Shown: positions 1 through 26,300, counted from the stretch's first letter. The stretch: 64,000 bases of DNA from Tubulanus polymorphus (GCF_964204645.1 NC_134028.1:24796345-24860344); one strand, 5' to 3'. The notes: generated from the letters alone by a model not told the origin. Numbers and translations are program-made.

Positions 1-3000
1 GTACTGCCAATCTTCGGTGAATGCGCGCTGATCAGCAGGATTCTGACTTCTCATAGTAGCTCTTACCACTCTATCGAGATTGTCGTATTCGAATGTTTCG
101 ATGGTTTTTCTCTCGCTGATGAGATCCTTCCTGCTCAGCATATTACCGTCTGTATTATAACCATACTGCCAGTGACGTAAGGTCCGCTTCGATTTGTCCG
201 TACTACGTATATGGGTCACGTGATTCATCAAGTCGTATTGATACTCGGTTAGTATCCCATTCCCAGACGTTTCCTTCGTTACCTGGCCAAACTGATCGTA
301 GTTCAAACCAGTCCAGTAGTTATCAGTAAGAGGACCACTACAAGCCGACTTGCGCACGGCAATCAAATATCCAGTTGGCGAATAGCAGTAATGCACAGTC
401 TTTCCACCAGGGTATATTTGTTGTGTAATTTGGCTCTGCCTGTTATATGATGTTTTCACTTCCAATACCTTAGTTCCAATTGTTGTATTGACGATAAATT
501 CTCTGCCAACTGAATCATAATTATACTCCCTCGTGAAACCACCAGGCGCGGTTACCTTTGCCACCTTGCCCTTACCACGGGGCTTTGTATCATAAAACCA
601 AAGCGTATCGCCTTCTGGTTCATTCCTCTTGACGATCCTTCCGAGTTCATCAAAGTATTCTAGTTTCTCTTGCCCTTTAGCGTCGGTTTGTCGAACCAGT
701 TCGCCAAACGCATTGTATCCATATTTCCATGTTCCCATATCAGGGTCAGTCATTTGTATTTTATTTCCAACCTTGTCATAAATGAATTCGTCAGCATTAC
801 CAGCAGGATCTGTTATCTTTTTTAAATTGCCCACAGCATCGTACTGATAATTAAGTTCACCGCCATTAGCATCAATAACCTTAATCATTCTATCCATTAC
901 ATCTCGCTGAGTAGTTGTTTTATGTCCTTTTCCATCGAACGATTCCGTTATCAATCCTTTAAACACTTTTCTCGTCACGTGTCTCAAATTGCTGTCCATC
1001 GGCCGATCGACCTTCACTTCGCGACCAATGACGTCGTAAGTGTACTGCACCCAGGATCGTCTACAAGTTGATTCACAAGGTAGTGACTGTTTTGCTACAA
1101 GTCCCAGTCCACTGTATGTGATATCTTCATAAATATCTTTACCGTTAAAATCTTTCGTGTGAATTCGAATCACTCGATCGAGTTTGTCGTAGATTCTGCT
1201 TTCAGATGGTTTTCCAGGTTCAGATGTGGAAACCTTGTAACCAGCATGCGGTATGGTATTATCCCACTGATAGGACCAATTGATTTGCGACCCGTCTGGC
1301 CTCCTCTCTGAAAGCTTCCTTCCGAAATCGTCGTAGGTCCAACTCGTTTTTAAACCATTAGCACCGACCATAGCGATTGTGTTGCCTAATCTATCGTACT
1401 GATACGTTTCCGTGTGACCGAGGCTATTTGTAGCGCTCACTTTACGGACACCATTTGAATCATAGGCTGTCGTGACTGAACGAATCTGTTTCGCTTGATT
1501 ACCGTGAGTGAATTTCGGAGTACGAGTTTGCTTTATCATGTTACCGAACTTATCGTAAATATTGTTACTTACTAATGCCAGATTATCATCAGGTTCAATG
1601 ACCATTGATGCGAGGGTTCTCTTAGTGACGTCATACGACCGAATCGTTTGCCGAACGGATATGTTTTCGTGTTGATCTGTATGTGTAACCTTCAGACAAA
1701 GAACCTGCCCGATAAACCAATTCTGCTTATTATTCAAAAACGATCTATTAGTTTCCTGTTTGAACGTGACTCCACCTCCACTAATCGTTCTCGTGATGTT
1801 TCGTGCATTTCCGTATTCATCGATGTTCTTAAACTCTTCCGTTTCCACTTTTATCGGGGCTCCATCGATTTCATTGACCTTCTGTATGATCTTATCCAGA
1901 ACGATCTGAATGTTGTTGGCTCCGGCCTGTGGATTTTGACGATGGCTGAATGTTTGACTTTTTTCCGACACGACTTTACCATTTACGTTAATAGTGCTCT
2001 TCGCCACCGTTCGAGTTAACGGGTAAATAAGGTTGTAAACATCTCTTCGAAGTTCGTTACTTTGAAGCGATTTCGCCTCTACCCACTCGTAGCCCAAGAT
2101 ACCACGACCTTTCATGTTAATGAAGAGTGGTCCATAAGTAAAATCAGTAACATTTTGTCCGCCAATACCATTATCATTAGCGATGCGCTTCACCAGTTGT
2201 TGGGCGTTGTTAAACTGTGCATTTGGATAAGTATTTACTTTCTTTATTGATTTATAAACGGTTTTATCCGCTTGTGTCGTGTACGTGATCGCATCTTTGT
2301 TGCCCAAACTGTCCGTGACACTAGTTAAAAGTTTTACTTCATTCTTATTCAAAGATACGTAAACGCCAGCGTCCACAAATCCGACAATATCCGTTAACCC
2401 ATCCCCATTCACATCGACTAGCATTCTCGGATTTGCTGATACTCGCCAACCACCAGTAGAAGCACCAAACTGCCTCACCCAACGTGAAGGAGTTCCGAAA
2501 GAGCTACCTGTATTCAAGGATATGTATGCGCCGGCGTTTGCGAATCCTACGACATCTGGGAGTCCATCACCGTTCATATCACTCAGATATCGGGGATGAG
2601 ACTCGACCCTCCAACCACCTGCTGTAAAACCGTAATCTTTGATCCATAATTTTGCGGTAAGAAATGATTTACCAGTTCCGATGGATACATAAACTCCAAA
2701 ATTAGCAAAACCAACTATGTCGGCGAGACCATCTCCATTTATATCTGTTACATGTCTCGGATCTGATTTGACTCTCCAGCCGCCTGCGGTGTAACCAAAT
2801 TGCCTCAGCCACACTGATCCAGAAGCGAAGCTACGTCCAGTATTCAGTCCTACGTATACACCGGCATTAGCAAAACCAACAATGTCTGGAAGTCCATCTC
2901 CGTTCACATCTTCGACGAATCTCGGGTGTCTTTCAACTCTCCATCCCCCTCCAGAGTATGAGAAATGAGCGTTCAACCACAGAGCCGGGGTTTTAAATGA

Positions 3001-4497
3001 ACTACCCGTATTCAAAGACACGTAAACCCCACCCGAAGCAAAGCCCACCACATCAATTAATCCGTCACCATTAACATCTTTCATGAATCGGGGATGCATA
3101 TTGATTCTCCAATCTTGGCTATAACCGAAATCGGCCACCCATATGTTTGGGGGAGCAAAGCTTTCTCCAGCCGTATTAAGGGCTACGTAAACCCCGGCAT
3201 TCGCAAAACCTACAATATCGGGAAGGTTATCACCATTTACATCTACTACGAATCTCAGGTGAGATGCCACTGCCCATCCCCCTACACTTCGGCCGAATGA
3301 ACGAACCCAGTATTTTCCAGGGCTAAATTTGTTGTTGCCCGTGTTTAGGGCTACATAAACACCAGCGTTTGCGAAAACGACGATATCAGCCAGACCATCC
3401 CCGTTCACGTCTACGACATGTCGAGGATGATTACCAGTTGACCAGCCTCCACTCGAAGCACCAAACGCATTTATCCAATAGCCCGGTGTTACGGTTTGTT
3501 TTACATCATTTAACCCCTTATATGACATGTCTACTGGTTTTAAGCAATTTCCGCTTCCACTACAAACCTTAACCTTATTCAAAACGCTCATTTTACTCTC
3601 GCCAGACGAACTGTATGTAATGTATATTTTTCGATGCAAATTTCCACCGACTAATGTCTCAATCGTCTTCAATCTCATGCTAATCTTACTCAGAATGTGT
3701 CCGTTGAAATATTCACTTCTCACATCTGGCCGATTTTCGTATCCGAATCGCACCTCCATTCCACCCGAACTGATCTTTGATAAATACGGGTAATCTTTGC
3801 CGGTCAAGTAAGTGAAGTGGATTGAAGCGTCGTTGTAGGCGCTCATTGATGTAACCAGCCATTCGTATGTTCCAGGTTGTGAAACGCCTTTCATCGAGGA
3901 ATCGCCAGTTTTGCCGTAATACGTCTCGCGGTCAGTCGTCTCCACCTTGAAGTAATCGGGTCCAGAAGCTTTCGTTCCGTATGATGTGATTCTACGTAAA
4001 CTGTCAACTTCTGTATAATAGGTGGCGCCATTTGACCCATACGACCCGGATGCGCTAACCAAACGAGCGCCATCTAGACAAAACCGATCAGAGGAAGTAT
4101 ACGACAATCCTAACACGCGGCCATCTTGGGCAACAGTTTGGCGGCATCTGAAGACGAGAAAACACATCTTTATGATTATAAAATTCTTTGAAATACTTTC
4201 AAATCATTCATAAGACCTCGACACATTTCCTCACCTAACTATTGAGCCGGGAACATCGATGTTCCAGCCCAAACCGACAGCGCCATTTCCGCGACTACTG
4301 TGGTATGAAAGAACTAGTTCCGGCATCAGACCATAGCCGAACCCATCCGGCAGCGGTATGGGTATTTTGTAAGCCACATTACCTTGTTGGACGTTTAGTT
4401 GTGTAGGAACATTGCCTACGACCTCTGCAGCGTCACCCGTCGATGGTAAGCTGGTGACGAGGAGGCCAAAAAATGTGTAAAACACACTTCGCAACAT
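1..4497 (-). CDS. Secreted Rhs/YD-repeat toxin-like protein, copy 1; 3' part lies beyond the window edge. Exons 4497-4235 and 4147-<1
   Basis: Colinear with copy 2 at a constant 8291-bp offset. ATG at 4497, GTGAG donor at 4234, TTCAG acceptor before 4147. No stop-terminated ORF is listed for exon 2, which fits a frame open to the edge. Encodes signal peptide, SpvB-like domain, 7 PVL-type repeats (~3490-2341) and YD repeats. Confidence 0.88.
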
Positions 4498-4640
4498 CTC
4501 ACCTACAATGAAAATTAACAGAGCTGAATATTTGTTGACACTGATTTAGAACAGTTCACTTTATAAAGATATATAAATACGTATTAATATTCGCTCTCTA
4601 TTTATCTATCGATAATTTAGTGGTGCAGCCCATTTAATTC

Positions 4641-4745
4641 CTGGGCCCTGTTTCACAAAAAGGTTTATCTCTTAAATCGATTTAATTAATTCAGTTTATC
4701 TTAAATCGATTTAGGCCTTAATCCTTTTTGTGAAACTGGGCCCAG
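4641..4745. mobile_element. Short palindromic MITE-like element (GGGCCC/GGTCCAGTT-ended family)
   Basis: Inverted ends ctgggccctgtttcacaaaaagg ... cctttttgtgaaactgggcccag. Similar hairpin elements at ~19200-19332, ~32124-32310, ~36835-36925 and ~54384-54497. Confidence 0.6.
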
Positions 4746-6737
4746 CTGGTCTGATATAGTTATCATATTTACAAATATTTCTTCTTCGATCCAATATATA
4801 TTGGAACTAAGCATAGATATAAGCATTTAGATAACATACAACTAAGTCTCGATAACAATAGATTACTTATTTCTCAAGTGTCTATCGGATAATTCTTCAA
4901 GATATAAAAGTTGTCCAATATCCCGGACACGGGAGTTAAAAATATGTGCCCGATTGGAAACTAGATAAGTTACAATGTACGTGAAAAACATTAGCCTCAG
5001 CACAAAAGCTACCGATGCGACTTGTACGACATACATTTTTCGTAGTAATTGCATTGTACGACATACATTTTTCGTAGTAATTGCATCATTTCGAGTGCAT
5101 TTTTTTAAAACAATTCTCTTCCCCGAGCGGTCCCTACATGCTGCTTTCAGCCACCGCGCTTTAAGCCAATGTTTGCCTTACTTTCTAGCGTTTACATATT
5201 GAATAGATATATTAGATTTCAACAGCATCTTCTACGCCTCAGAAAAGATGTGACCGTGGAATTTCCTTTACAACTAAAAATCTTTAAAGATTTTGGATAT
5301 TTGGAAAAGGTGAAATTTTCCTCCACAGCTACTAACTATAGTTACTGATATACACTCTGTAAACGCAATGCTGCGTGCAACGAAAATAAACAGGAAAATG
5401 ACGACGGTTCATAAACTCTAGAAATTAATTCTAACCAGACATAAATTCCATACAATGAACTTAGAAATCGGAATATTTCTCAAACCAAAACTAACATCGT
5501 ATCAAAACCTTATTGTTAACGATGTGTTTTAATCTTGGTGTAATGAGTGTGTTTTTTCGGAAAATCGAATAATCATGTTTCAGTCCTACCATTTTTCCTA
5601 GTCGGTAAATTGATGGATTGATGAAGTCCAGTTGTTGAAAATATACATATGATATAGGTGATGTATATAATTTGTTCATAACATACCTTGCACCAATGCC
5701 ATTAAATTGTGGAATGGGACTTTGTCTGCGCGCACTTAAGCGTCATAATTGAAATCCAAGACTCCTTTCAGCGAAAAATAATATTGGAAGACTAGACAAA
5801 CAATCGTTGAATGCACTCGTAGATAGAGAATAAACTTTTAGATATTTTCGCAATGAAATTGAAAAACTACTAAAACTACATTCGTGTATAGATTTAGGAT
5901 AGAAACAAAACATGTAAAACTATTTTTTGAACACAAGACAAATGATCAACGAACGCACACAAAATAGACTAAAATATATTTTTTGATTGAAATTGATGAA
6001 GACTAAACAAATCATTCGTGTATAGATTTTAAGACACGTGGAGCACTCGTAATTGATTCACTCTGCCAATCATTTCTAACTCGTATTAGAGGATTACTCA
6101 TGAATGATTATTACCAAAGAAAAAAACGAAAATACAACCCATTTCTTCCTTTCATATTTTGAATTTATTAACGGTTTGAAATGAAATCTCTTAATTTTGA
6201 CAAAAAAGGAAACATATAAATGAATACATATTAGACCGATGCATTTCCAAATAACGATGAAAACTGATCATATGGAAAATACTATAAATGAACTACTTTA
6301 CTGCACGGGTTGACAAGAAGAAAAGTGATAAAGCTATTTTTCTAAATACAGTTTCGTGACATTTAATCACTTATACAATTATAAGTTCGTACTATCTAAA
6401 ACAAGCAGTGACTGCGGTGTAGCAAAATATAGCTCGACAGTAGACCGAATACCAAGGGAACATTGAGACATACGTTCACGGACATGTACTAGGAATCCAT
6501 TTGAAAAAAAGTATTTACACGCTGAAAATTGCTACTGATCAATTCACAGGATCCCGTTCTATAGATTTGAGTATAGTTTTTAGAAATCGAAAGTTATCAA
6601 TTCCAAACCTCAACCGAGGACCCGGGTCCAGTACACTTCCCCCTACTGGAAAAATCAAATGAAATTATTTATCTCGACGATTTTCTATAAAATATCGGTA
6701 AACTGGGAAACTTGATTAATGCCGATTGTGAAAGATT

Positions 6738-9700
6738 CTATTGGACACGTTTCGAGCGCTTCTGGTCAACGATCAGAGCGGCTGATGCCGGACCGTCTAA
6801 AAGAGCAGTATACGTCATCGCAGCCGCTGGTAACATACCTGGAACATTGAATACATCGCGGGCAAACGGTAACGACACCTGGTCTAATCTAACCTGGAAA
6901 ACATCGTGCATGCCGGCTACAGCGTTTATACCCGGAACACGATTGGCAACAACACTTAATCTTCCACCCTCATTAAACCAACCTGACGGATCGAGAGTTT
7001 CCTCTGCCGTTCCGAAATTATTTGCACCCTTAACAGGCATGTCCCAAGGTTCTTTCGTAACTGCTTTACCACCCGGCTTCCAAGTGACGTCGTACTTGAC
7101 AATCTTATTATACGCGTATCTCATCGACGACGTGACCAAACCGAGAACCAGGCCATCTTTAAACCGACCACCCGTTAATTCGCTAGCCGCCCCGGCCCCG
7201 ACCCCTTGGGCTGCGACGCGTTCTAGATTCCAAGAATTTCCAAAATAGCCCCCGACACCTCCAGTTATAGCACCACCAAGGGCACCCTGCAGGCCTCCTT
7301 TTACTGACCCAGTTGCTATAGTACCCCCGACAAATCCAGCCGTCGCACCAGCTATCGCACCAGTTGCAACAGCAGCCGATGCACCAGTTAAACCGGCCGA
7401 AACGGCGAGACCGGCTGCCCAAGGAGTAGCTGCCCCAAACGTTACTGCAGAGGCCACCACGGCAATGATTACTCTTGGTGTGAAGACCTTCTTGAAGAAT
7501 CTGCCAATTTTCTTGAAGAAAAATCCCGATGGATCGTTGTATCGTAGAGGGTTATTTTTAGCGTACGAGTAACGGTTAAAACTCTGCGTATCGTACGGAT
7601 CCTGTACGTGTGGATCAGGACTCAAGAATCGCCCGACCTCCGGGTCGTAGACACGACCGTTCATATGGATTAATTGCAGCTCATCGATTCGTTCCTGTCC
7701 AGTAAAATCTCGTTTAATACCAGAGAACGAAGCGGCTGAATAGGAAACAGAAGAACGCTCGAAAGCCCAATCTTTGAAGGGTTGAGGTTTTCCAAACACG
7801 TTATAACGTTTTCTCAATAGTACCTGCCCGCTCTCACCAGTAATCGTATCAACTGATCCAACATGGTCGAGATGAACGTATCTCATATTTGTGTTGGAAT
7901 TTATAACCGTCTCGATTCCCACTAGTTTATTATTGGCATAGACAAAATACTTGTGTTCATCGCCCTGGTCGTTTTCAGTAACTTCGTACACCTTTCCGAG
8001 GTAGTATGTCTTCTTTTCATTTTCGGTATGGTGGTCAAATGTACTTTTAACGTATCGACTACGATCCGGATCGTATTTGAAATTGACGACCTGGCTACTC
8101 GTTTCAAACTTTTCTGGCATGTTGAAAGAAGTCCATCCAACTGTCTGCATATTCTTGCGTATTACGTTCCCATTGTCGTCGTAAGCGTAAGAATTATGCC
8201 CAGCTTGGACGAGAGCCCTGGGCTTCTGCGAATGGTACACGTGATGTGGGCCGCCCATTCCGCTGAATCTACGAATATTACCGATTGCATCGTACTGCCA
8301 ATCTTCGGTGAATGCGCGCTGATCAGCAGGATTCTGACTTCTCATAGTAGCTCTTACCACTCTATCGAGATTGTCGTATTCGAATGTTTCGATGGTTTTT
8401 CTCTCGCTGATGAGATCCTTCCTGCTCAGCATATTACCGTCTGTATTATAACCATACTGCCAGTGACGTAAGGTCCGCTTCGATTTGTCCGTACTACGTA
8501 TATGGGTCACGTGATTCATCAAGTCGTATTGATACTCGGTTAGTATCCCATTCCCAGAGGTTTCCTTCGTTACCTGGCCAAACTGATCGTAGTTCAAACC
8601 AGTCCAGTAGTTATCAGTAAGAGGACCACTACAAGCCGACTTGCGCACGGCAATCAAATATCCAGTTGGCGAATAGCAGTAATGCACAGTCTTTCCACCA
8701 GGGTACGTTTGTTGTGTAATTTGGCTCTGCCTGTTATACGATGTTTTCACTTCCAATACCTTACTTCCAATTGTTGTATTGACGATAAATTCTCTGCCAA
8801 CTGAATCATAATTATACTCCCTCGTGAAACCACCAGGCGCGGTTACCTTTGCCACCTTGCCCTTACCACGAGGCTTTGTATCATAAAACCAAAGCGTATC
8901 ACCTTCTGGTTCATTCCTTTTGACGATCCTTCCGAGTTCATCAAAGTATTCTAGTTTCTCTTGCCCTTTAGCGTCGGTTTGTCGAACCAGTTCACCAAAC
9001 GCATTGTATCCATATTTCCATGTTCCCATATCAGGGTCAGTCATTTGTATTTTATTTCCAACCTTGTCATAAATGAATTCGTCAGCATTACCCGCAGGAT
9101 CTGTTATCTTTTTTAAATTGCCCACAGCATCGTACTGATAATTAAGTTCACCGCCATTAGCATCAATAACCTTAATCATTCTATCCATTACATCTCGCTG
9201 AGTAGTTGTTTTATGTCCTTTTCCATCGAACGATTCCGTTATCAATCCTTTAAACACTTTTCTCGTCACGTGTCTCAAATTGCTGTCCATCGGCCGATCG
9301 ACCTTCACTTCGCGACCAATGACGTCATAAGTGTACTGCACCCAGGATGGCCTACAAGTTGATTTATAAGGCAACGACTGTTTTGCTACATGTCCCAGTC
9401 CGCTATAGGTGATATCTTCATAAACATCTTTACCGTTAAAATCTTTCGTGTGAATTCGAATCACTCGATCGAGTTTGTCGTAGATTCTTCTTCCAGATGG
9501 TTTTCCAGGTTCAGATGTGGAAACCTTGTAACCAGCATGCGGTATGGTATTATCCCACTGATAGGACCAATTGATTTGCGACCCATCTGGCCTCCTCTCT
9601 GAAAGCTTCCTTCCGAAATCGTCGTAGGTCCAACTCGTTTTTAAACCATTAGCACCGACCATAGCGATTGTGTTGCCTAATCTATCGTACTGATACGTTT

Positions 9701-12700
9701 CCGTGTGACCGAGGCTATTTGTAGTGCTCACTTTACGGACACCATTTGAATCATAGGCTGTCGTGACTGAACGAATCTGTTTCGCTTGATTACCGTGAGT
9801 GAATTTCGGAGTACGAGTTTGCTTTATCATGTTACCGAACTTATCGTAAATATTGTTGGTTACTAATGCCAGATTATCATCAGGTTCAATGACCATTGAT
9901 GCGATGGTTCTCTTAGTGACGTCATACGACCGCATCGTTTGTCGTACGGCTTTCTTGCCGTGTTGATCTGTATGCGTAACCTTCAGACAAAGAACCTGCC
10001 CGATAAACCACTTCTGCTTATTATTCAAAAACGATCTATTAGTTTCCTGTTTGAACGTGACTCCGCCTCCACTAATCGTTCTCGTGATGTCTCGTGCATT
10101 TCCGTATTCATCGATGTTCTTAAACTCTTCCGTTTCCACTTTTATCGGGGTTCCATCGATTTCATTGACCTTCTGTATGATCTTATCAAGAACGATCTGA
10201 ATGTTGTTGGCTCCGGCCTGTGGATTTTGACGATGGCTGAATGTTTGACTTTTTTCCGACACGACTTTACCATTTACGTTAATAGTGCTCTTCGCCACCG
10301 TTCGAGTTAACGGGTAAATAAGGTTGTAAACATCTCTTCGAACTTCGTTACTTTGAGGCAATTTCGCCTCTACCCACTCGTAGCCCAAGATACCACGACC
10401 TTTCATGTTAATGAAGAGTGGTCCATAAGTAAAATCAGTAACATTTTGTCCGCCAATACCATTATCATTATCGATGCGCTTCACCAGTTGTTGGGCGTTG
10501 TTAAACTGTGCATTTGGATAAGTATTTACTTTCTTTGTAGATTTATAGACGGTTTTATCCGCTTGTGTCGTGTACGTGATCGTATCTTTGTTGCCTAAAC
10601 TGTCCGTGACACCGGTTAAAACTTTTACTTCATTCTTATTCAAAGATATGTAAACGCCAGAGTTCGCAAATCCGACAATATCCGTTAACCCATCCCCATT
10701 CACATCGACTAGCATTCTCGGATGTGCTGATACTCGCCAACCACCAGTAGAAGCACCATACTGACTCACCCAATAGGAAGGCGTTCCGAAAGAGCTACCT
10801 GTATTCAAGGATATGTATGCGCCAGCGTTTGCGAATCCTACGACATCTGGGAGTCCATCACCGTTCATATCACTCAGATATCGGGGATGAGACTCGACCC
10901 TCCAACCACCTGCTGAATAACCGTAATCTTTGACCCATAATTTTGCGGTAAGAAATGATTTACCAGTTCCGATAGATACATAAACTCCAGCATTAGCAAA
11001 ACCAACTATGTCGGCGAGACCATCTCCATTTATATCAGTTACATATCTCGGATGAGATCGGACTCCCCAGCCGCCTGCAGTGTAACCAAATTGCCTCAGC
11101 CACAGCGATCCAGAAGCGAAGCTACGTCCAGTATTCAGTCCTACGTATACACCGGCATTAGCAAAACCAACAATGTCTGGAAGTCCATCTCCGTTCACAT
11201 CTTCGACGAATCTAGGGTGTCTTTCAACTCTCCATCCCCCTCCAGAGTATGAGAACTGGCCGTTCAACCACAGAGCCGGGGTTTTAAATGAACTACCCGT
11301 ATTCAAAGACACGTAAACCCCACCCGAACCAAAGCCCACCACATCAATTAATCCGTCACCATTAACATCTTTCATGAATCGGGGATGCATATTGATTCTC
11401 CAACCTTGGCTATAACCGAAATCGGCCACCCATAATTTTGGGGAAGCAAAGCTTTCTCCAGCCGTATTAAGGGCTACGTAAACCCCGGCATTCGCAAAAC
11501 CTACAATATCGGGAAGGTTATCACCATTTACATCTACTACGAATCTCGGGTGAGATGCTACCCTCCATCCCCCTGCACTTTGGCCGAATGAACGAACCCA
11601 GTATTTTCCAGGGCTAAATTTGTTGTTGCCCGTGTTTAGGGCTACATAAACACCAGCGTTTGCGAAACCGACTATATCAGCCAGACCATCCCCGTTCACG
11701 TCTACGACATGTCGAGGATGATTACCAGTTGACCAGCCTCCACTCGAAGCACCAAACGCATTTATCCAATAGCCCGGTGTCGTGGTTTGTTTTACATCAT
11801 TTAACCCTTTATATGACATTTCTACTGGTTTTAAGCAATTTCCGCTTCCACTACAAACCTTAACCTTATTCAAAACGCTCATTTTACTCTCGCCAGACGA
11901 ACTGTATGTAATGTATATTTTTCGGTGTAAATTTCCACCGACTAATGTCTCAATCGTCTTCAATCTCATGCTAATTTTTCTCAGAATGTGTCCGTTGAAA
12001 TATTCACTTCTCACATCTGGCCGATTTTCGTATCCGAATCGCACCTCCATTCCACCCGAACTGATCTTTGATAAATACGGGTAATCTTTGCCGGTCAAGT
12101 AAGTGAAGTGGATTGAAGCGTCGTTGTAGGCGCTCATTGATGTAACCAGCCATTCGTATGTTCCAGGTTGTGAAACGCCTTTCATCGAGGAATCGCCAGT
12201 TTTGCCGTAATACGTTTCGCGGTCAGTCGTCTCCACCTTGAAATAATCGGGTCCAGAAGCTTTCGTTCCGTATGATGTGATTCTACGTAAACTGTCAACT
12301 TCTGTATAATAGGTGGCGCCATTTGACCCATACGACCCGGATGCGCTAACCAAACGAGCGCCATCTAGACAAAACCGATCAGAGGAAGTATACGACACTC
12401 CTAACACGCGGCCATCTTGGGCAACAGTTTGGCGGCATCTGAAGACGAGAAAACACATCTTTATGATTATAAAATTCTCTTAAATACTTTCAAATCATTC
12501 ATAAGACCTCGACACTTTTCCTCACCTTACTATTGAGCCGGGAACATCGATGTTCCAGCCCAAACCGACAGCGCCATTTCCGCGACTACTGTCGTACGAA
12601 AGAACTAGTTCCGGCATCAGACCATAGCCGAACCCATCCGGCAGCGGTATGGGTATTTTGTAAGCCGCATTACCTTGTTGGACGTTTAGTTGTGTAGGAA

Positions 12701-12788
12701 CATTGCCTACGACCTCTGCAGCGTCACCCGTCGATGGTAAGCTGGTGACGACGAGGCCAAAAAATGTGTAAAACACACTTCGCAGCAT
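6738..12788 (-). CDS. Secreted Rhs/YD-repeat (TcB-TcC-like) toxin-like protein with PVL-type lectin propeller, copy 2. Exons 12788-12526 and 12438-6738; ~1987 aa
   Basis: 1906-aa ORF plus an 88-aa upstream exon, joined in frame by an 87-nt GT-AG intron (AG|GTGAG ... TTCAG|A) to give GWNIDVPGSIVR-CRQTVAQDG. Contains seven GGW..HPR..DVNGDG..DIVGFANAGVYV repeats, many YD repeats, and the Rhs core FTGQE..MNGRVYDP..GRFLSPDP..NRYSY..NNPLRYNDPSG. An AATAAA lies on the minus strand at ~6164-6169. Confidence 0.92.
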
Positions 12789-13760
12789 TTCACCTAAAAT
12801 TGAAAATGAAACCAGCTGAATATTTGTTGACACTGAATTACGTAGATCGCTTCAGTTCATGTAGATATATACATACACATACACAGATATCAACAATTCG
12901 TTATCTTTTATCATGTATCACTTCACGATAATTTAGTAATACATTTCATTTCCTGGTCCGATAAAGATAATATCCCCAGATATCAAGTCTCTGAATGTGT
13001 CTATAAGTGAAATAAACATTGAAAAAATCGAATTCGTGTGTAAGCCTCGAAAACGCTACTATCATAGTAAAGTGTCAAATTGGATAATTCTTGAAGATAT
13101 CAAAGTGGTTTAGTATCCGGGATTTATGAGTTTGCACATAGAAATATGTGCACATTGAAAATTGGTTAAGTTTCTATGTATATGAAATACATTAGCCGTA
13201 ATACAAAAGCTACCGATGCTACATTTTGCGACATATTTCAATAGAAACATTAATCATAGTAATTAGATGTGTTGTGCCCCTTTCACTGTGGATACAATGT
13301 TCAACATCGCTTTCCACTGGGACGTTAATAGAAAAGCGAAAACATTTCATTAACTCTTAATATAAATTCGAACCCAACCTGCATTCTATAGATAATCGAT
13401 AATGAATTATATACCATAAAGTTGGACATAGGAAAACTTCTCAAACCAAAAATGAACTTCAGTGTAAACAAGTTTATTTTTTATTTTGGTATTCTATATT
13501 AGTTTGGTGTAAGGATTCTGCTTTTTCCGAAACTGATAATACACATTTCAGTCCTAGCGGTTTTCTACTAATGAATATGAAGGATTGATGAAGTCCAACT
13601 GTTGAAAAATACAATTGACGCAATCTAACTCGATACCGTGTAATGTCGAATTTGTTCATAACATACCTTGCACTGCTCCTAGTCAACCAGTGAAAACTGA
13701 AGAATGGTGTTGTCGCTTTCAGTACTGTTAAGTGTTGTGACAAGAGCGTCACAAGAGCTT

Positions 13761-13909
13761 GCTCATATCCTAGCAGATTTGGAAAACCCAAAGTATGAAT
13801 GGACTGATATGACGTCTGCGGGTGTATGGACTTTTGCTCATATCCTAGCAGATTTGGAAAATCCAAAGCATGAATGGATTGATATGACGTCAGCGGGTGT
13901 ATGGACTTT
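13761..13909 (+). repeat. 75-bp direct tandem duplication (2 copies) inside a 99-codon ORF (13704-14003)
   Basis: gctcatatcctagcagatttggaaaa...gtatggacttt starts at 13761 and again at 13836. Confidence 0.9.
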
Positions 13910-14663
13910 CCCCATTTATAAATACCCCGGTATAGTGTCTCAATCGTCTTTTCAACTCGCGCCGGAAAACCCAATTAACTGTTCTATGTATTTTAGGGAC
14001 TGACGAAACTGTTACTCGAAAACAAGTTCTTAATAGAAATAATGTGAACAATAACAAGCCAGAAAAAGTGTCCCGGGATAGCTCTGTGTAATCAACCTAT
14101 TTATTTTATTTGTAGCTTATCAATGAGTGTCATTCATTTGTGGAATTGAACTCAGCCTGCGCGCATTTCTTCGAAAAACGGAAAGACCTTGAGCGTCATG
14201 AATTTCCAGACAAAAAATATTTCAGCGAAAAATAATTTTTGAAGAGAAGACAAACAAGATCAATGAAAGTACAACGAGTAAACCAAAAACATTTTTGATT
14301 GAACGGCTAAACAATGCATTCGTGTATAGATCAAAGATGAAAAATTCATGGAGACATTAAGATACAAACCCACTATTTACAAATTAAAAGAATTCTAAAA
14401 TCGAGAATTTATTTATTGAAACAATCTAAAATATAAGAACACGACGTTTCCATCTCACCCTAGAGATCATCGTCAGGTGTCAGTGTGGTTATCGTACTAC
14501 ATAGAGACATGTTTCTAATTCGCTCTGCTGATTATTTCTAACTCGTATTTGAAATAATAGCATTTCATCGTGGTAGATATTGGCATGTCTCTACCTATTC
14601 CGGAATTATATTCTGGCGCATTCATTTCGATACATAGTCAGGAAAAGAACCCGATTGAAACGA

Positions 14664-14972
14664 CCGGGATGGGTTCGGATAGGTTTCGGCATGGTCTAAT
14701 GCCGAAATTAGTTCTCTCGTCGCGGATAGCAGTCGCGGGAATGGCGCTGTCAGTTTGAGCTGGAACATCGATGTGCCCAGCTCAATAGTAATGCGAGGCA
14801 AAATACCGAGGTGAAGTAAATGATTCAATAGAAGAAAAGAAAGTAGTGAATAACGATGTGAATCCGTGTATTCAGATGCCGTCAAATTGTCCAAGATGGC
14901 CGCGTGTTAGGCGTGTCGCATAATTCCTCTGATCAGTTTAGTTTTAGAGGCGCTTGTTTGGTTAGCGTGTCC
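14664..14972 (+). pseudogene. Inverted, degenerate fragment of the Rhs toxin gene (end of exon 1, intron, start of exon 2)
   Basis: Reads GLMPKLVLS / DSSRGNGAVSLSWNIDVPSSIV, then an intron-like spacer with the donor mutated to GC, then ttcag|atgccgtcaa..caagatggccgcgtgttaggcgtgtcg (CRQ..QDGRVLGVS). Frameshifts are present. Confidence 0.85.
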
Positions 14973-15462: not shown

Positions 15463-18400
15463 TCACGTTCTCTTCTGTAGCAATCGTTTACACCTGGAGA
15501 ATTTAACGCAACGATTTTTATGTAGAACGAGGCCGGGCGCGCATTCACATCCGGGTACACACGGGCGATTGCAGTTCCGGTCAGCTGTCGGGTTTTCGCA
15601 GGTGCGCAGACACGCGGACATACACTTCTCATATTTCGAACCGTAGATACATTTCGGCGCTAAAATCGAAAAGAATGAAGAATATTTTTACACATTTTTC
15701 AAGTCGCTATTTTTCAAAAAGAAATATTACAAATTCCACGCGCTAGAACTACCAACACACGACTTTTCGACGTTTCACACTATGTCAGTTTCAAATGAAC
15801 TGGGTAGAGAAGTAGGAATCTGTACAAGAGGTCATCATTCATTGAATTTAGAAAAGAGACGTTTCAACACCAAGTAGAGGAAACTTCTTTGGAGTACGCG
15901 TAGTCAACACATGGAAGTAGACAGCTCCATCAACGAATGCATTTAAGAACAGCGACATAACACCGTAAGTTCTATTGCTGCCACTATTGACATTTCAGGT
16001 CAAATGACACAAATGCTTTGTCGAAAAGTCGTGTCTTGATAATGTTCAGTGCTTTTTACACGCAATACTTTACTATTATTAATAGATAACTAATAATCAT
16101 TTTATTAAATGAAAAGATTCTTACTTCCGCAGAAATGTGGTGTTTTCCATTCAGCGACGATATTAAAACGAGCACAGGCTTTCGTATAAGCGATCAACGC
16201 TTCACAGCTACACTGCATGTTACTTGGACAATCACATACATCAGTTACACACGCCCTGTAAAGATAATGCAATTCTTTTTTGAGTAAAGTGATTTCAGAA
16301 GGTTAGAAATGCGTCCATAAAAAAAGAGGTGGGACCAGAGACAGCAGCTCTCGGTTCTCGGGACTTAAAGCATTGAAACTTATCCAAACGCTATGTTCAA
16401 ATTTAACCGACAATCTGTGGAATCAGGCACAAATTTGCGGTCAGTAACTCCCTCTTCGCGAAGCTTTCGTTATTTTGAGATCAATGAAACACACTACCGG
16501 GTTGTCTAGTGTACTACGAGTAAAGTCAGTTATATAGATAAATAAACTATTTCTTAGTTTCTACAGGCCCCTCCAGGTCTAATTTACTGTATTTTGTATT
16601 ATGCTTTGTACACTATGCGGTAAATTATATTTGAAAAATAAAGTGTTCATTCATTCATGGACAAATTCTTTGTGGAAAATACAAAATGTATACGTACTTG
16701 TAATAAGGACGGACGGGTAAGACTTCTCGGCATTTGGCGAACGCCGGCGTGAACAAAAAACTGCATTCCTGATGAGCTAGCATTTTATGAGAGAAGACGC
16801 TTGGATTCAAACACGGCGAAGGTTTATTCGATCTGTTCGGTTTCAGACATTTCCCTCCGACTCGCCACTGATCGCCGAATTCCTTCGAATCGTGTACCCG
16901 TTTGCCGTTTTTACCAATGAAATCGTCGCTAGGATCGCCGTTGTAATTGCCGCACAAGCCGCACAGTTTCGTTTTCAACTTCGCGGGCACGGTCACCTCC
17001 AGATAACTGTCTCCGTCCCAGACGATTTTGATGCCGTTCGAAGCCCGAACTACGATCGACATATCCTCGATCGTGATATTAAAGCCGTCGTGCTCGTACG
17101 GTAAATCCACTGTTTTACGCTCGACGCGCACGAGCATTCTCTGCAACAGGAAAATCCGCGTCTTATTCAACTGAACGGCGGCCATCTTGGTCCAAGCGTA
17201 GTTTTCGTAAAGTCGCACGTGGTTTCGTACTCGTATGTTGAAAGCGGCCTCGTCCGAGCAGAGCTTCGTCAAAGTGTATTTACAATTTCCTTGGAAGTCG
17301 AACATTTTCCCGTCGTAGGTTCGATAATGCGGGTCTCCAAATACGGTACACACAGATTCACCTGGGGAAAAGACACAACATTTTCGTTTGAGATTCAGAC
17401 ATAAATTGCTTTTACGCATGAACAGAAGAACACGTTTTTTTGGTACATGCGATGTATTCTCTCGGATTGGGACCTCACGAGGCACGTACGCCATGCCGTA
17501 AGATAAACGGGTGAATTTCGCGAGCAAACTTACGGCTTGGAGTAATCAAATGATTTACTCAAAGCTTACGGGTTCAGTGGAACCATACGGGCAACCCATA
17601 AATCTCACGGCGGCGGGCCCAAAGCACCTCGTAACAGAATCGCTCATTGCAGACGTTTGTATTGATGATAAGTAGTATTCCTTTAAGAGCTTCGTATTTG
17701 CGGAATTTGCGGTATACTTACGTTCGACACACCTCGGGCAGCATTCGCCGGCCGGAGTTTTCAGTTCGAAATTCTGAAGGCATACGATTTGTTTCTTTTC
17801 ACACGGGACGACTCTGCATACATTCTCACCGTTAACGCATTCGCACTGCGAACAGCCGTGTCGCCATGTTTGACCATGCTGCAAATAAGATGTTTCAGAA
17901 TGAAATAATATTTCGTTTCTCAAAGAACAATTAATCGTCGAATGATCCCGACAATGTAGATTATAAGAACAATTTTGAAGCTATGGCTATATCAATTTGT
18001 TAGCTAACTGCATCACAGGCCAGTTGCTCAAAAGCTGATAAACTAAATAGCAGACAAAGTACTGCATTTTGACCATATAGTATTCATCTTTGATAATACA
18101 AAGATAAATTGATGACTGATTTATAAGAAGGTTAATTACCGCGTATGTGATATCTTCCATTTTACACATTTTCCCATGTTTACATTTCGGGCAACATTCT
18201 CCTGGTGGGTTGATTATATCTTCTAAACTACAGTCAAGAGGACCACATTTCTCCACATCACACACCACCATACTATTCTGTATTGAGATAGACATTGCTA
18301 TTATCAAACCTTTAACATGTCGTACACAAATACATGAATAACGTAATGTGGCATTTGTTTTAGATTCAGCGCCGAATTCATGAATACATACCCTACAAAA

Positions 18401-18857: not shown

Positions 18858-20371
18858 CTCCCATTTTGCCGTTACTGTGATATTCTAATCGTGTTGAGCG
18901 TATTCTCGAGCAGAAATAAATTGACCCGTTGCCTTTCACAATCACTGCATAAATGTGAATTTAAATAGACGAGCAGGCCGCTCTTTATAGTCTCGTGAAA
19001 TGACATCTATAATATGAGGCGTGATCACCAGTCTTGCTGGGCACGTAGATTATCATTCACTGTGTTAATTATCCAGCGAATGGCGTTTGTTGACACCTAA
19101 ATTAGACACAAACAATGTTAATCCCTTTACGTGTCACTTTGCAAGCGCCAGATTCGCTCCTGTCTAAAAATTCCTGTCCAATACAACGCTCCAGTTTAAG
19201 GTCCAGCTGTATCAGTCGTACTCAAGTCCATAAGTTATCTTAAATTTTAAGACTATATAGCCTTAGTCAGTTTGGGCCACATAAAAGTGGTCTGAATAAC
19301 GTTAATAACGCTAAGACTGTGCAACTGGCCCATGGGCATCGGCGCTTTCCTACGTGGAGGCACCACGGTTATGCAATTCAAACTGTACTTGAACTGTGCC
19401 GTGAACTCATTTTAACTTGTAATATTTGAGCTGTGCGATAACTTCTGGTATTCACGAACTTTTATTTGTACAATAAAATTAATGTTCATGGTGTAAATTA
19501 CTTCCAGGAATGCTAATCAAGTTAAGGGTAGTGTAATTGGCACCAAATAATTTCATGGGTAATTTACTATCTAATTCAGAAGAAGATTTATTGGGTAAAG
19601 CTCATAAAAGGAATGAGAAATTTCTATTTTGATTTATTTCAGTAAATGAGGTAGTTTGACGACGATCAATTGAAAAGTGACCCGGCTCGCGCGCCAGTTT
19701 ATTTTACCGTACTGTACCGCCATCTATATCGCGTCGGGTCCGGTATCTTTCGGAGCCCGCCAGTCCGTACGGTGTCGCCATCTACATTAATGGAGGAGAG
19801 CTGTCAGAATTTTGTAAATAAAAACACACGTCATTCTTCATGTAAATTATCGGTGTTTTCACGCTTATCGCGAGTCGATGCGGCGCTGTTTATCGATAAC
19901 AAGTCAGTTTAGATCTTAGATACAGTTAATTTTTTTGCTGTAGTCTTGTTGTCAGAGGCTAAATAGAACAATTTGGCCTCGAGCCCGAGATTCGAACAAA
20001 AAAAAACGAAACAGAAAAAAAATCCATTGTGTAGTTCGTTGATCACTGTTCAATTTGAAAATATCTGTAATTTTAAATCGTTTAGTAGGCTTAATCTTGA
20101 AATAATCTTTGCAAGGTTGCGTCCCATTATAATTTTTTCGTTATAAGCTTTTGTAACTTAATATTATATTGCCATTAAATTTATTAATTGACAATTGTTC
20201 TAAATTTTGAGATATCAAAAATTAGATTATTTTCCGTCTATCAATTTTGATGTTTAAGAAAATGATGGCCGTATGAATCATTGTTTTTATCTTCGAAGGT
20301 TAATTCCTGGTGAGAATATGATTTGACGAATGATACATCGCATCAGTTCAATGTAGTCGTAACGGAGTATA

Positions 20372-23300
20372 ATGGATGCGAGTGCAGGTGAGCGCGCTGT
20401 TAAACTATTTCAGCAAGCTCAGTACGTCGATGCATGCGCCATCTATTCCAAATGTCTGGAACGAATTGTGGAGTCGTCGAATCAAGATGATCACGGAAAA
20501 CGAGTTCAACTGTTGCTCAATCGATCGGCTTGTCACGTTAAATTGGTAAGTAGCAGGTCGACTAGTACACGGGTCAAACTCGTACCCGGTCAACTGGTGC
20601 ACAGGTCAAACTCGTACCTGGGTCAACTCATACCCGGTCAACTGGTACACGGGTCAAACTGGTACCTGGGTCAACTCATACCCGGTCAACTGGTACACTG
20701 GTCAAATCGGTACCTGGGTCAACTCATACTCGGTCAACTGGTACACTGGTCAAATTGGTACCTGGGTCAACTCATACCCGGTCAACTGGTACACAGGTCA
20801 AACTGGTACCTGGGTCAACTCATACCCGGTCAACTGGTACACATGTCAAACTGGTACCTGGGTCAACTCATACCCGGTCAACTGGTACACAGGTCAAACT
20901 GGTACCTGGGTCAACTCATACCCGGTCAACTGGTACACAGGTCAAACTGGTACCTGGGTCAACTCATACCCGGTCAACTGGTACCCGGTCAAACTCGGAA
21001 GACTCTCATAAGCCTAATGCACCTGATATGACTTTCAAGATGATTTTGATGATATTCAGAACCAGGAACGCCTTACCTCTCATTGAGTCACTGGTACTTG
21101 CCTTTTCAGGGATATAAATCACACTGTTTTTGATATGTTTTGTTGCCCCTCTTTTGCGTGATAGTCTCTCTAGTTACAAGCTGGATCCATTAGGCTTTCA
21201 TAACTTGAGATAATTATTACTATTTATTTTTATTTCAGAAAAACTATGAAGCCGCCATAGAAGATTATGAACAAGGTACGCTGTGAATGGAATGCCACAA
21301 TTAACTCAAGCTCTCAGTCTTCTTATAGCTTTTAGACCTTACATCAAATAATGAAAAGGCAAAAACTGATATCAATTATTCAAAACTCTTTCAACCTGTT
21401 TTTCTGTTAGAAAAAGTATTTGATGTGAACAAACTTGACCTTAGAACAAACTGCTTCATTGTCAATGCTCATTGGTCAATTTTGGACAATATGGTTGACT
21501 ATGTAACAGCTCCATTGCCCACTATGAGATAACTCGTATAAGCAACTGGGGGCAGTGAATATGTTAATTAAGCATTGGATTGTGGAACAGAATGAAAGAT
21601 ATTTTTAGAACCCCGGCCTTCAGTTTCCAAACTTTATTTTACAGTTTTGTTAATCGATGAGTTGAACGCGAAAGCGTTTTTAAAGAAGATAAAAGCTCTG
21701 TCGTCAATTGGCAAATTTGTAAACGCGTTCGAAACTGCGAAAACATGGCTCGAAAAGGATGAACAGGTACTATCATTTGATTTGAGGCACGATATAAAGA
21801 TAGAGTCCAAAAGCTCTTGATCGTTATGAACTTTTGTATGTATGATTTTTAGAATGTACAAGCTAAGAAAGAAGTTGATCGACTGGAAATAGTTGTAAAA
21901 GCTCTACTCGACCAGGTAAGCTCATATTTAATGTGACCTGTCGGTTTAGTTTTTGAAGGTGTCTACCCCTTAAGCCTGAGAGTCTTAACCCTTGTTGTGA
22001 TTAGCGAATATTTTTTGTGGCCCCAGCAGTGTTTTGATGTGAGTCTATACATCGGATGAAGTTTAGTTAAACTTAGATTTCATTTTCAAATGTGGAACTC
22101 TTTTAAGTCTTGTGTGTTGTACATCTATATATCCTAGTTTTACAAATGTTTTTTAATCACAAATATGGCCACTTCTAGCGTGCTTGTGGGTTGAATTTTA
22201 GACAATTTCTCATTGTAGCAGTTAGATGAAGATGATGATGACGTTATCATTATTGACAATGGAATAACAGTCGACTGGGAAAAGGAGGAAAATGTTGAGA
22301 GCACCCCGTCGATTGAGAAAACCAAACCAGATACGTGTAGTAATTGTGATATCACTGATGATAATGAGGAGGGTAAGTCAAGGGTGGATCCGAGGAGCGG
22401 GTGCAGGGGATGTGGCCCCCCTCCTAAAAATGTCAAGTTGCCCTGAAATTGTAGGCCTACAGGAAATAAAAAATACTAAATTGATACCTAAGAAAATTTA
22501 AATTCATAAGCTTGTTCTCTGTATATCCGATGATGAGTTAATGTTTGCGGTGAATTAATTATTTCGAAGATGAATTATTGCGAGTAACGTATAATTTTTC
22601 TAGAGAATGATTCGATGAAGATTGATTTAGCTATCGATGCATGTTTGGAACCTGCGAGCGGCGGTGCAAATGAAAATGACGATGACGTCGATGTCGAAGA
22701 TGAAAAAGGTGATGACGATGATGGAGAATTGGAAGTTGATATTGCGGATAATAACGACAATTCTCAGCAGAGCGGTGACGATAAAAATGATGGCGGTCGA
22801 ACATGGAGGTTCCGTGAACCGCCGCGAGGCCTTACCAGCGAAGAATTCCAGAAATGTCCCAGGTGTGTTCTGTAATATTCTGTATCCAGGACCCGCTTAA
22901 GTTGAATTCTACTCTACAAGATTACAGTTGAACCTCCTTGAAACGATTCTGTTTAAGATGAAACCCATTTACTACGATGGTTTCCAGCAGAGATATTTAT
23001 ATTAACAATTTCCCTTTTGACTACAAGAATTGTCTACATTTTCGCTCTTTCAACCCTAGCATGCTGCGATATTTCAATAGAGATTTAAAAAAGTCATTCC
23101 TACTTATATCAATATACTGTGATGCAATGTATTAGCAAAACCCATTACCGATCTATACACCGCACTGTGGTGTAGATGCACTGAAAGGATTAATGTTTAA
23201 TGATCATTATTCTGCCAGGTTTATGTCGAGTGGAATTTGTCGATTCGGCGATAAATGTACGGAAGCTCATTGCGACGGAGAACTGCTTGAGTGGCGCAAA

Positions 23301-26300
23301 CGTTTCGATGACCGTTACGAGCAGCTGCAGCGAGAGAGGGACGAGGAGAATCGTGGAGCCGGCCTCTCGTACGCTGAACAGCTACTAGAAAAATGGATGA
23401 ACGCCGATAATCCAGAAACAATCGTAAGTGTCAACATTGAGATGGAGGAGTGGAGGCTGAGGCATGTATGATAGTGGCTACCACAGTTCAGACTGTACCC
23501 AGTTCCACAGTTCAGACTGTACCCAGTTCCACAGTTCAGACTGTACCCAGTGTCACATTTCTGATTGCACCCAGATTGCAGTTGGTTGAATAAATAGATT
23601 TTTGCTTTCACATTTCAGATGACGAGTAACCCTCCTGGTATCAAATTCTACTGCAATTCAGATTCATCAATAACTATGGCAACTAAAAGGTGTAATCACG
23701 CTTGGCTTTTCACGTTGACTAGCAAGGTAGGTAGCTTTAGCACGTGCTTCATTCATGATTGGGAATACGTACGTACACCTACATGCGCCATCAATTTCCA
23801 CGTCGAAAAAGAAAGAACTAACTTTTTAAATCCGCTGAAAAATAATTTGCTAAGAGCTTACTGAAATGTCGTAAGTTTTGATTAAAATTTGAGTCTATTT
23901 CTATCCGTTGAAAGCTGTATTTAGCTCGTGTGATTCTATTGGACGAATCAAAACGCCATTTCAACATAACGTCCGTCACGATCGGCCCGAAGAAAAATCA
24001 AAAATCGCAAAAACTCGACGAGAGTTGTCAAGAATGGTTGAATCCTGTCGATCAGAATAACTTGTCAAAAAACGAAACTGTCTACAGAGTAAAGGTCAGT
24101 TTTATTTTCTCTCACTATGATTTTCTATTCCCCTAAATGCTAACTGCACAATTGAGTCTAAGCTCATTTTGGTTCTATAGTCAATCTAACAATATGACAA
24201 GACTAAGCTCATTTTGGTTCTATAGTCAATCTAACAAATTAACACTGGTCTAAGCTAATTTTGGTTCTATAGTCAATCTAACAAATTAACACTGGTCTAA
24301 GCTTATTTTGGTTCTATAGTCAATCTAACAAATTAAGACTGGTCTAAGCTTATTTTGGTTCTATAGTCAATCTAACAAATTAAGACTGGGGTAAGCTTAT
24401 TTTGGTTCTATAGTCAATCTAACAAATTAAGACTGGTCTAAGCTTATTTTGGTTCTATAGTCAATCTAACAAATTAAGACTGGTCTAAGCTTATTTTGGT
24501 TCTATAGTCAATCTAACAAATTAAGACTGGGGTAAGCTCATTTTGGTTCTACGGCTAATCCAACAACTACAGAGCAGTTTTATGATTTAGTACCACTCCC
24601 CCTAAAGTTCACTGTTATGATAACATTCGACTATTTTCTATGATTTCAGATTCTATTTCGTACGGATATATTCGGAACGTTTCGTCAAACAGTCGTGTTT
24701 GATTTCGGTGTCGAACCGGTGATGTGTCAGCAGCTGTGCGTCGACTCCAGTCCGGTAATCGACGTCGATAAACTACAAGCTGAGTTAACCCTGAGTGAAA
24801 GCGGCCGCTGGGAAGTATCGACTATACCCATCGTTGAATTCCTCCCAAAGTAAGCGTTTTCCTTATCTGACTTTCAAAGTATTTTATCGAATTTACTGTA
24901 CATCCATCATACTTTTTTGTGTACTGTGGACTGTGGATGGAATTTGTTGAAATTTTATGACTATTGGATCATGTTGAGAAGAGTTATGTATTTTTGAGGG
25001 TCCACCTTTCAACATGTCTGACTGGTGGCCGCATTTGTTCTTAAAGCTATCTAGGCAAACATCCTTCTGTTCAAGATACAGACTGAACCAGCGAATGGAT
25101 TCTTAAATAAATTCACGACTTCTTATGAAATCTACCGGGTATGTGAAATAATTTGTGGTTAAAATTGTGATATCTGATTTCGTCGTAGGCCGCGTTGTAA
25201 CCGTCGTGATGCCGAATTGTTGGAGAAATATCCGGTTCCGTCTGCCGCACAGATTGCTACTAGCCATTGTTTACAGGACGGCGTCACGTCGAAGGAAAAC
25301 TACCGCGATCGAATGCACAGTTTGTTGTACATTGAAGAAATGGCGCAATATTCAAATGTATCCAAGTACGTAATACACTGATACTGATTAGTGAAAAATT
25401 GTGAAGAATGGAATGTCTGCTTAGAAATGTGAGAATCTGTGAAATATGATGAAAATGTGTGAACAGTTCAAGAAAAGTGTCTGTCAAGATATTTTGATTG
25501 CCGCTTATGTCATATACTGCAGAGCTTTGAATTCATTTTAATCTGTCCAAGTAGTAACCAATAACTGCTTATATTATTGATGTGAAACATTTGTAAAAGA
25601 TTATGAAAAATGTGAAAAATCCTGATATTTCATAGTAGAAAATTGTGAAAAAGTAAGGATGTTATTCAGAGTTCATCAATTTGATCGATGTGAATTTTAA
25701 GCATTATCTATTCATAGGGAGTAGTGGCTAGCATCCAATTATCAGAAAAATCTTAAGCTTAAAAGCTTAAGAAAAGTTTCAATGAAGTGGTAATTGTTTT
25801 TGAACATTCCAGAGTTCATCGATCTGATCCTTTTATGCTCGTACACTTCAGATATAACATCAAAACCTGGTTGGATTTAACGACACGATTCATGTTGATG
25901 CCTTCGACGTATTCCACGGCTAAATACGCTCAAAACGACGAGCTGTTCGCGCACACGAACCTAGCGACGGAGATCTCCGAGGATACCGCTCACGGGCGGC
26001 TCATTTTACAGAACGTCAATCGCGTTCTCATCGCGGCCGTCGATAAAAATAACAAGTCCGAAAACCAAACTCCCGAAAAGGTCAGTGGTTTATCACTTAA
26101 TTCCTCCCTGAATCAGTGCACCGTCCCGAATCAGACCTAGATTCACCCCTGAGATTATTCATGCTATGATTAAAATTCCGCTGTACACCATTTTCACTAC
26201 TGACCCTGTGAAAATAACTCATGAATTCTCCATTCATTCAGGACGTATCCTAAAATTTGCCTAAAATTCAGAATTCCGGTACTACTCATTACTAGCCTCA

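Follow-up and report, generated by a model that had tools for sequence, protein, structure and literature searches.

A candidate antibacterial toxin capsule of likely bacterial origin in the genome of the nemertean Tubulanus polymorphus

Bacterial polymorphic toxins of the TcdB/TcaC type are outlined in PMC3482391 as proteins with a signal peptide, an SpvB domain, an integrin-like propeller, RHS repeats and a C-terminal cargo, and the B-C shell of the Tc (ABC) toxins is portrayed in PMC6425310 as an SpvB-plus-propeller plug on a YD shell, with a self-cleavage motif in the Rhs core. Animals have kept such shells: teneurins, treated together with bacterial teneurin-like proteins, appear in PMC13018210 as a YD shell of bacterial toxin origin, and mosquito SGS1 appears in PMC9935623 as a horizontally acquired Rhs/YD shell with sugar-binding modules, an intact protease motif and hydrophobic helices past the cut. 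Here we describe a gene that resembles these systems in a 64,000-nt stretch of the Tubulanus polymorphus genome (NC_134028.1:24796345-24860344; hereafter the window, with coordinates counted from its first letter). The minus strand of the window carries two long open frames, 1-4203 (copy 1) and 6738-12479 (copy 2). Copy 2, we propose, encodes a whole TcdB/TcaC-type toxin, acquired likely once by an animal and domesticated as a predicted secreted antibacterial capsule, a reading to which we give a probability of about one half. It builds on observations of genomic location, splicing, domain order, a clade placed among bacterial proteins, a conserved cargo and a bacterial cargo-plus-lipoprotein layout.

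A spliced gene and its product

From its ATG at 12788, copy 2 runs through a first coding exon of 263 nt; a GT-AG intron of 87 nt (12439-12525) separates this from a second exon of 5701 nt that ends at 6738. Its 1988 codons, including the stop, yield a protein of 1987 aa, and it matches the database protein P0003, which has the same length and is encoded on a 27.4-Mb contig. Contigs of four public runs were compared with the window. X1 and X3 were treated as RNA-derived because their contigs skip GT-AG introns (in X3 also an intron of the neighbouring BMPER-like gene), this being the sole basis of the assignment, in place of run records; X2 and X8 are DNA-type runs. The features of copy 2 are as follows.

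13665-13750 (ends approximate), minus strand: 5' untranslated exon; 12791 is linked to 13665 in a contig of X1 that has 84 letters on the exon's side of the joint
12794-13666, minus strand: 873-nt GT-AG intron in the 5' untranslated region (UTR), skipped in X1, its ends read in the sequence
12526-12788, minus strand: coding exon 1, with the ATG, a predicted signal peptide (about residues 1-23; hydrophobic core) and the start of the SpvB-like domain (SpvB, E=5.7e-9)
12439-12525, minus strand: 87-nt GT-AG intron of phase 2 that interrupts codon 88; contigs of X1 and X3 skip it, those of X2 and X8 do not
10632-11789, minus strand: seven-bladed lectin-like propeller of the PVL/AAL2 type, about residues 305-690 (best PDB match the Psathyrella velutina lectin, E=6.4e-108; seven blades)
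7722-10631, minus strand: TcdB_midN and YD/RHS-repeat shell, about residues 691-1660 (Pfam, NCBIfam and PDB Rhs matches)
7524-7721, minus strand: Rhs-associated core with the PxxxxDPxG motif and predicted self-cleavage after residue 1726 (TIGR03696, 63.8 bits against a cut-off of 32.5)
6738-7523, minus strand: 261-aa cargo and stop, with a cationic amphipathic leader, Gly/Ala-rich hydrophobic helices and a conserved terminal domain (6741-7160) bearing a His-Asp motif
6071-6737 (end approximate), minus strand: 3' untranslated region, reached by contigs of X1 (to 6071) and X3 (to 6236)

The coding intron is spliced out in contigs of X1 and X3, which come from two studies, and the UTR intron in contigs of X1; neither joint is present in X2 or X8. 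Raw DNA reads of X8 cover both copies at single-copy depth (about 6-13 per bin, with low-repeat flank bins at 5-12), and an X2 DNA contig spanning 14469-16571 links a relic of the gene to the 3' end of the BMPER-like gene. Since copy 2 is spliced in contigs of two studies, unspliced in DNA and at single-copy depth, and its relic is tied to a host gene by the relic-to-BMPER contig, it is a real gene of the animal genome. The initial annotation, drawn from the sequence without searches, had noted GT-AG introns and contiguity with BMPER; the introns and the BMPER-like neighbour are confirmed. An assembly artefact, in which a bacterial contig was joined into a worm scaffold or haplotypes were assembled as a tandem pair, could appeal to the bacterial nature of the closest non-animal relatives (33-36% identity) and to the interval 13817-14468, bridged by no single contig of the runs mapped on the window. 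However, the introns are spliced, host high-copy repeats lie in the flanks, the gene is present in runs of three studies, per-copy DNA depth is like that of the flank and the shell stands at twice flank depth in X2. The artefact is thus largely refuted, and we regard it as very improbable indeed.

Pfam and NCBIfam matches above curated cut-offs were obtained for SpvB, FG-GAP_3, TcdB_toxin_midN, RHS_repeat, YD_repeat_2x and Rhs_assc_core. The order in copy 2 is a signal-like N-terminus, SpvB, seven FG-GAP-like blades, TcdB_midN, RHS repeats, the Rhs core with PxxxxDPxG at residues 1718-1726, and a 261-aa tail, and among solved structures the fungal lectin PVL matches best, followed by bacterial Rhs proteins. 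The protein of about 1987 aa and the TcB/TcC-like domain order that had been read from the sequence are thereby borne out. The signal peptide claimed alongside them has its hydrophobic N-terminal core and is, as a peptide, a prediction from a hydrophobicity heuristic. The lectin-pocket Trp and His are retained in all seven blades of the propeller. In P0131 of Exaiptasia the blades are degenerate (three fit the blade pattern, against five to seven in other named animals) and the cargo is conserved. No EGF, transmembrane, FN-plug, NHL or Tox-GHH domain of the teneurin type was found in copy 2 by the Pfam scan, and no 19-residue hydrophobic window exceeds 1.6 outside the cargo, in line with the early remark that teneurin EGF and transmembrane regions are missing.

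Positively charged and amphipathic (moment 0.78, charge +5), the leader opens the cargo, whose last 130 or so residues are predicted to fold as a small helical domain (pLDDT 94); a model of the full 261 aa was poor (pLDDT 50) and was not used. Glu, Asn, His and Asp residues that are near-invariant in bacterial cargos are kept in copy 2 and the animal rows. Identity of the cargo to seven animal-type homologs is 49-70%, against 27-47% for the shell. Because the cargo is conserved above the shell among the animal-type copies, it is frozen in animals, the opposite of the polymorphic toxin cargo initially supposed. It has no consistent Pfam family (DUF637 matched in 4 of 33 rows scanned) and no PDB sequence match. 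Its Atlas matches were all below 0.9, Foldseek returned none at E<=0.001 and VIA gave a best Z of 4.2 (rmsd 4.9, 79 aligned) among 48,161 chains; in these searches the end domain corresponded to no known family or fold, which is no proof of a new fold. A toxin like phospholipase A2 (PLA2), which the His-Asp helix may resemble, was considered; no PLA2 family or chain was among the listed cargo matches, and a parvovirus VP1 fragment came first in one fold search, but at E=1.6.

Bacterial carriers of the cargo and the history of the gene

The same cargo is found at 38 metagenome loci and at 18 loci of named bacterial genomes, which include Proteobacteria, Nitrospirota, Planctomycetota and Omnitrophota. 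In bacteria it caps unrelated Rhs shells scattered over the shell tree, and loci L004, L030, L040, L041, L053 and L054 have the SpvB-propeller-RHS order with this cargo. When a lipoprotein gene lies directly downstream of a toxin gene, it usually marks immunity to a toxin that acts on the cell envelope. An open reading frame (ORF) with a lipobox, its start lying between -45 and +130 nt relative to the cargo stop, follows the cargo in 43 of the 56 bacterial loci, against 40 of 298 other ORF ends taken as control. Of the 43, 31 belong to a single family (about 100 aa) that has conserved cysteines and no consistent Pfam match, and five to another group, with Sel1 matches in the two members scanned. 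The arrangement suggests an envelope-targeting antibacterial toxin with its immunity gene and, across diverse bacteria, an apparently undescribed toxin-immunity pair. At L001:8184-9346 and 42 other loci the His-Asp helical cargo is followed by the ~100-aa or the Sel1 lipoprotein, and some of these loci look like orphan cassettes.

A profile of the lipoprotein family found nothing in the six frames of the window (best E 0.19), though a copy split by an intron, or one elsewhere in the genome, is possible. A TcA_TcB_BD match is present in one of five possibly incomplete bacterial carrier genomes and lacking in the other four, and VgrG exceeds the cut-off in one of the five. No TcA or type VI gene was seen among 55 ORFs scanned, mostly picked from 143 listed, and no TcA-like translocator in the 64-kb window.

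The closest listed proteins by identity are those of Owenia fusiformis (49%), Actinostola (48%), Exaiptasia (46%) and Lingula (45%), with further animal-type sequences at 40-49%; the next full-length matches lie at 33-36% and are bacterial where named. The Actinostola gene model, P0006, appears fused to an unrelated downstream gene (extra PF05721), probably an annotation error. Trees were built on shell columns alone, with 113 rows in FastTree and 27 in a quick IQ-TREE run, and contained no teneurin rows; the 113-row tree excludes eleven matches (fragments, duplicates, lectin-only) and those rows whose shell was too short. All 11 animal-type shell rows form one clade (SH 100) within bacterial SpvB-RHS proteins, and all 13 animal-type cargos group together among 61 rows (SH-aLRT 89). 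The point at which two gene models of Exaiptasia part is precisely the Arg-Cys pair that is the site of the copy 2 coding intron, and the homologs P0004, P0009 and P0015 begin to match at residues 85-88, near that site. Because these Exaiptasia models diverge, and the matches of P0004 and P0015 start, at the intron site (in proteins, not DNA), the coding intron is apparently common to the Tubulanus and Exaiptasia genes. It seems likely from the shell and cargo trees that the gene entered animals once, from a bacterium. The independent horizontal acquisition first envisaged thus stands as to its nesting among bacterial SpvB-RHS proteins and falls as a lineage-specific event, there being homologs in Owenia, Lingula, Exaiptasia and Actinostola. 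No relative was found in the viral contigs scanned, and a viral vehicle was set aside.

As to what followed, Owenia groups with the anemones (SH 100), at 58-65% identity over about 1900 aa, against 43% to Lingula and 49% to the Tubulanus protein. Lophotrochozoan monophyly (Tubulanus, Owenia and Lingula) is rejected at p-AU 0.0024, in a test whose group was chosen after seeing the tree and whose model was the simple LG+G4. Transfer from animal to animal would account for this, and we place it just short of an even chance. The gene could instead have entered before the cnidarian-bilaterian split, duplicated early and been lost in most animals, with no movement between them. A single clade with an apparently shared intron is what such a history would leave, and hidden paralogy can produce a discordant tree, particularly with five named species sampled. 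It is nevertheless at odds with the nearness of Owenia to the anemones and with the rejected grouping, and needs very many losses, no other named animal being among the matches listed; we hold it tentatively, at somewhat below even odds. Repeated uptake from an unsampled donor clade is improbable. A still bolder composite is doubtful: that of a still-armed capsule with a cargo of undescribed fold, domesticated once, given its intron and then passed between anemones, annelid and nemertean as a mobile antibacterial weapon opening without a TcA needle.

Second copy, relic and neighbouring genes

Three further features bear on the locus.

1-4580, minus strand: copy 1, with an ATG at 4497, an intron at 4148-4234 and 1382 codons free of stops up to the edge of the window, beyond which its 3' end lies; probably cargo-less
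14676-14972, plus strand: inverted, frameshifted 5' relic covering residues 51-121 in three frames, with an intron remnant; 78.7% DNA identity
16120-18870 (ends approximate), minus strand: BMPER-like gene with VWD and VWC domains, a 100% match to a Tubulanus polymorphus protein on a 27,379,721-base contig

Copy 1 is 96.9% identical to 8292-12876 over 4585 bases (offset 8291), leaves the window before the Rhs core and shows a pN/pS of 0.38 against copy 2. Between 1-4147 and 8292-12438, 49 of 61 amino-acid differences fall in residues 300-999, which cover the propeller and the start of the shell. Depth in X2 is 53-64 over the shell and 27-31 over the flank, with 35 on the intact cargo and 33 on a second 3' form. 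In this form, seen in X2 and X8 from different studies, 7287-7520 is replaced by a short stretch and likeness ends at 7226; read by eye, the frame meets a stop no more than five codons from the cut site. Because the shell stands at twice flank depth and each 3' form at single depth in X2, two loci exist, the second without cargo. This cargo-less locus is probably copy 1, whose shell may be an empty capsule or a case of recent decay. No X1 or X3 contig covers 1-4002, but copy 1 need not be silent on that account. Instead of the two intact copies and tandem expansion claimed at the outset, the evidence points to a single intact gene, a copy that probably lacks its cargo, and the relic initially reported.

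Short high-copy host repeats with inverted structure lie beside the copies (4640-4745, 14358-14480 and 16600-16650) and their depth in both X2 and X8 is very high. At 483 aa the product of the BMPER-like gene is short; a second BMPER-like protein of the same species, of 721 aa, is just 48% identical over the VWD exon. The gene at 20330-34200, whose introns contain minisatellites (20554-20998 and 24155-24551), is probably a HELZ-like helicase: AAA_12, a weak PAM2 match and a helicase Walker A motif support the HELZ neighbour named in the initial annotation. The window also holds an exon with a Beta_elim_lyase match (51783-52232) and a tandem array (45584-46841) with a period of about 225-245 bases.

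Proposed function and comparison with known systems

In the antibacterial reading, the predicted signal peptide would send the protein into mucus or another secretion, where the lectin-like propeller might dock on N-acetylated sugars of peptidoglycan, lipopolysaccharide (LPS) or mucus glycans. The Rhs core would cut the 261-aa cargo free inside the YD shell, which would shield this hydrophobic cargo. Once out, the cargo could enter the target envelope via its amphipathic leader and Gly/Ala helices, and the His-Asp end domain could damage a membrane or periplasmic target. Were that target bacterial and outside the cytoplasm, neither a TcA needle nor an immunity gene would be needed. Venom, mucus defence and antimicrobial immunity had at first been named together; an antibacterial role is favoured over venom because of the bacterial gene context of cargo and lipoprotein.

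Several points weigh against this proposal. The Asn/Asp position reported as essential for GlcNAc binding is Asp in two of seven blades, Gln in three and Ala/Ser in two, positions being set by spacing from the Trp and one of the two Asp residues by a one-residue shift; the suggested glycan targeting is thus plausible by its Trp and His and weakened by the Asn/Asp. The host is presumed for six of the 11 animal-type shell rows (the other five come from named species), and in two of these six (P0135 and P0136, which fall on the Lingula side) a single ORF continues across the intron site. Among the 56 bacterial loci are near-duplicates, the lipobox rule is loose (13% background), 13 loci have no match, and immunity is read from adjacency. 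The chemistry of the cargo is a guess, because it has neither a Pfam family nor a fold match. A protein co-opted for a non-toxic role could equally be strongly conserved between phyla, and a closed shell would have to open at a bacterial surface without a delivery machine.

With the same origin, the protein could be a venom or anti-predator toxin whose propeller binds animal glycans and whose cargo permeabilises animal membranes. Nemertean toxins are said in PMC4986456 to serve defence and prey capture, and PVL is reported in PMC4483166 to bind GlcNAc and Neu5Ac. Sea anemones supply two of the other carriers, the leader of the cargo combines positive charge with amphipathicity, and X1 contig depth is 600-2900 on copy 2 against 0-7 on the BMPER gene, albeit a poor measure of expression. 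On the other hand, Owenia and Lingula are not known to be venomous, the bacterial homologs show the toxin-plus-lipoprotein layout of interbacterial weapons and the window holds no TcA-like translocator, so that we consider venom unlikely. Equally unlikely, in our estimate, is a non-toxic co-option as in teneurins, with a secreted multivalent lectin scaffold acting in mucus, adhesion or symbiont recognition and the tail serving as a plug or membrane anchor. Such a role would agree with a cargo that is conserved rather than diversifying and with the open frame and pN/pS of copy 1 (though the second locus has lost its cargo), and it has precedents in the repurposing of teneurins from toxins (as related in PMC13018210) and in the predicted transmembrane helices housed by the SGS1 shell (PMC9935623). 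It sits poorly with the retention in animals of the (near-)invariant Glu, Asn, His and Asp of bacterial cargos and with the intact self-cleavage motif, whereas teneurin is described in PMC9935623 as lacking the last Asp.

The gene would be another animal capture of a YD-shell toxin, beside teneurins and mosquito SGS, and one in which a seemingly whole weapon was kept: a signal for secretion, the motif for self-cleavage and a cargo that has relatives next to immunity-like genes in bacteria. It would offer a stage between bacterial toxin and animal protein that can be put to the test, and the gene tree provides a candidate case of transfer from one animal phylum to another, with the apparently shared intron as its mark. 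Since one nemertean venom survey discarded genes of putative bacterial origin, according to PMC4986456, venom surveys may have overlooked the gene by design. We found no published description of the animal family, judging by titles, term counts and abstract openings among the matches listed, and supplements (for instance that of PMC3482391) could list its proteins; this animal family of toxin capsules is apparently undescribed.

Compared with TcdB/TcaC-type toxins, copy 2 has the SpvB domain and FG-GAP propeller (the signal peptide by hydrophobicity), the RHS repeats and the cleavage motif of the Rhs core. In contrast to them, it is an animal gene with introns and a fixed cargo that has no Pfam family, and no immunity gene was found in the window. 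Exchange of the cargo is seen in its bacterial relatives but not in the animal copies, where the cargo is among the most conserved parts. From the Tc B-C shell it differs in the lack of TcA in the window and in four of five bacterial carriers, in its lectin-type propeller and signal-like N-terminus, and in a cargo unlike known enzymes. Judged by its domains, the Tubulanus protein is not a teneurin: EGF, transmembrane, FN-plug, NHL and Tox-GHH matches are missing, SpvB is present, and its distribution is patchy rather than pan-bilaterian, extending to cnidarians, where, in the account of PMC6425310, teneurins were not found. The propeller resembles the fungal GlcNAc lectins PVL and AAL2, described in PMC4483166, in its seven blades of about 55 residues and its Gly-Trp and His pocket residues; unlike them, it is embedded in a toxin shell and has the essential Asn/Asp in two of seven blades.

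Mosquito SGS1 is larger (3364 aa), without a classical signal peptide and, as presented in PMC9935623, described from mosquitoes, and the similarity of copy 2 to the SGS proteins is weak (SGS4, E=1.7e-4, core only). Tick dae2, introduced in bioRxiv 2020.04.10.036376 as an interbacterial toxin adopted by an animal as an antibacterial factor, is a lone enzyme, whereas the Tubulanus gene encodes a whole 2000-residue delivery capsule together with its cargo. By analogy, the nearest animal counterparts may be SGS1 in build and dae2 in likely role.

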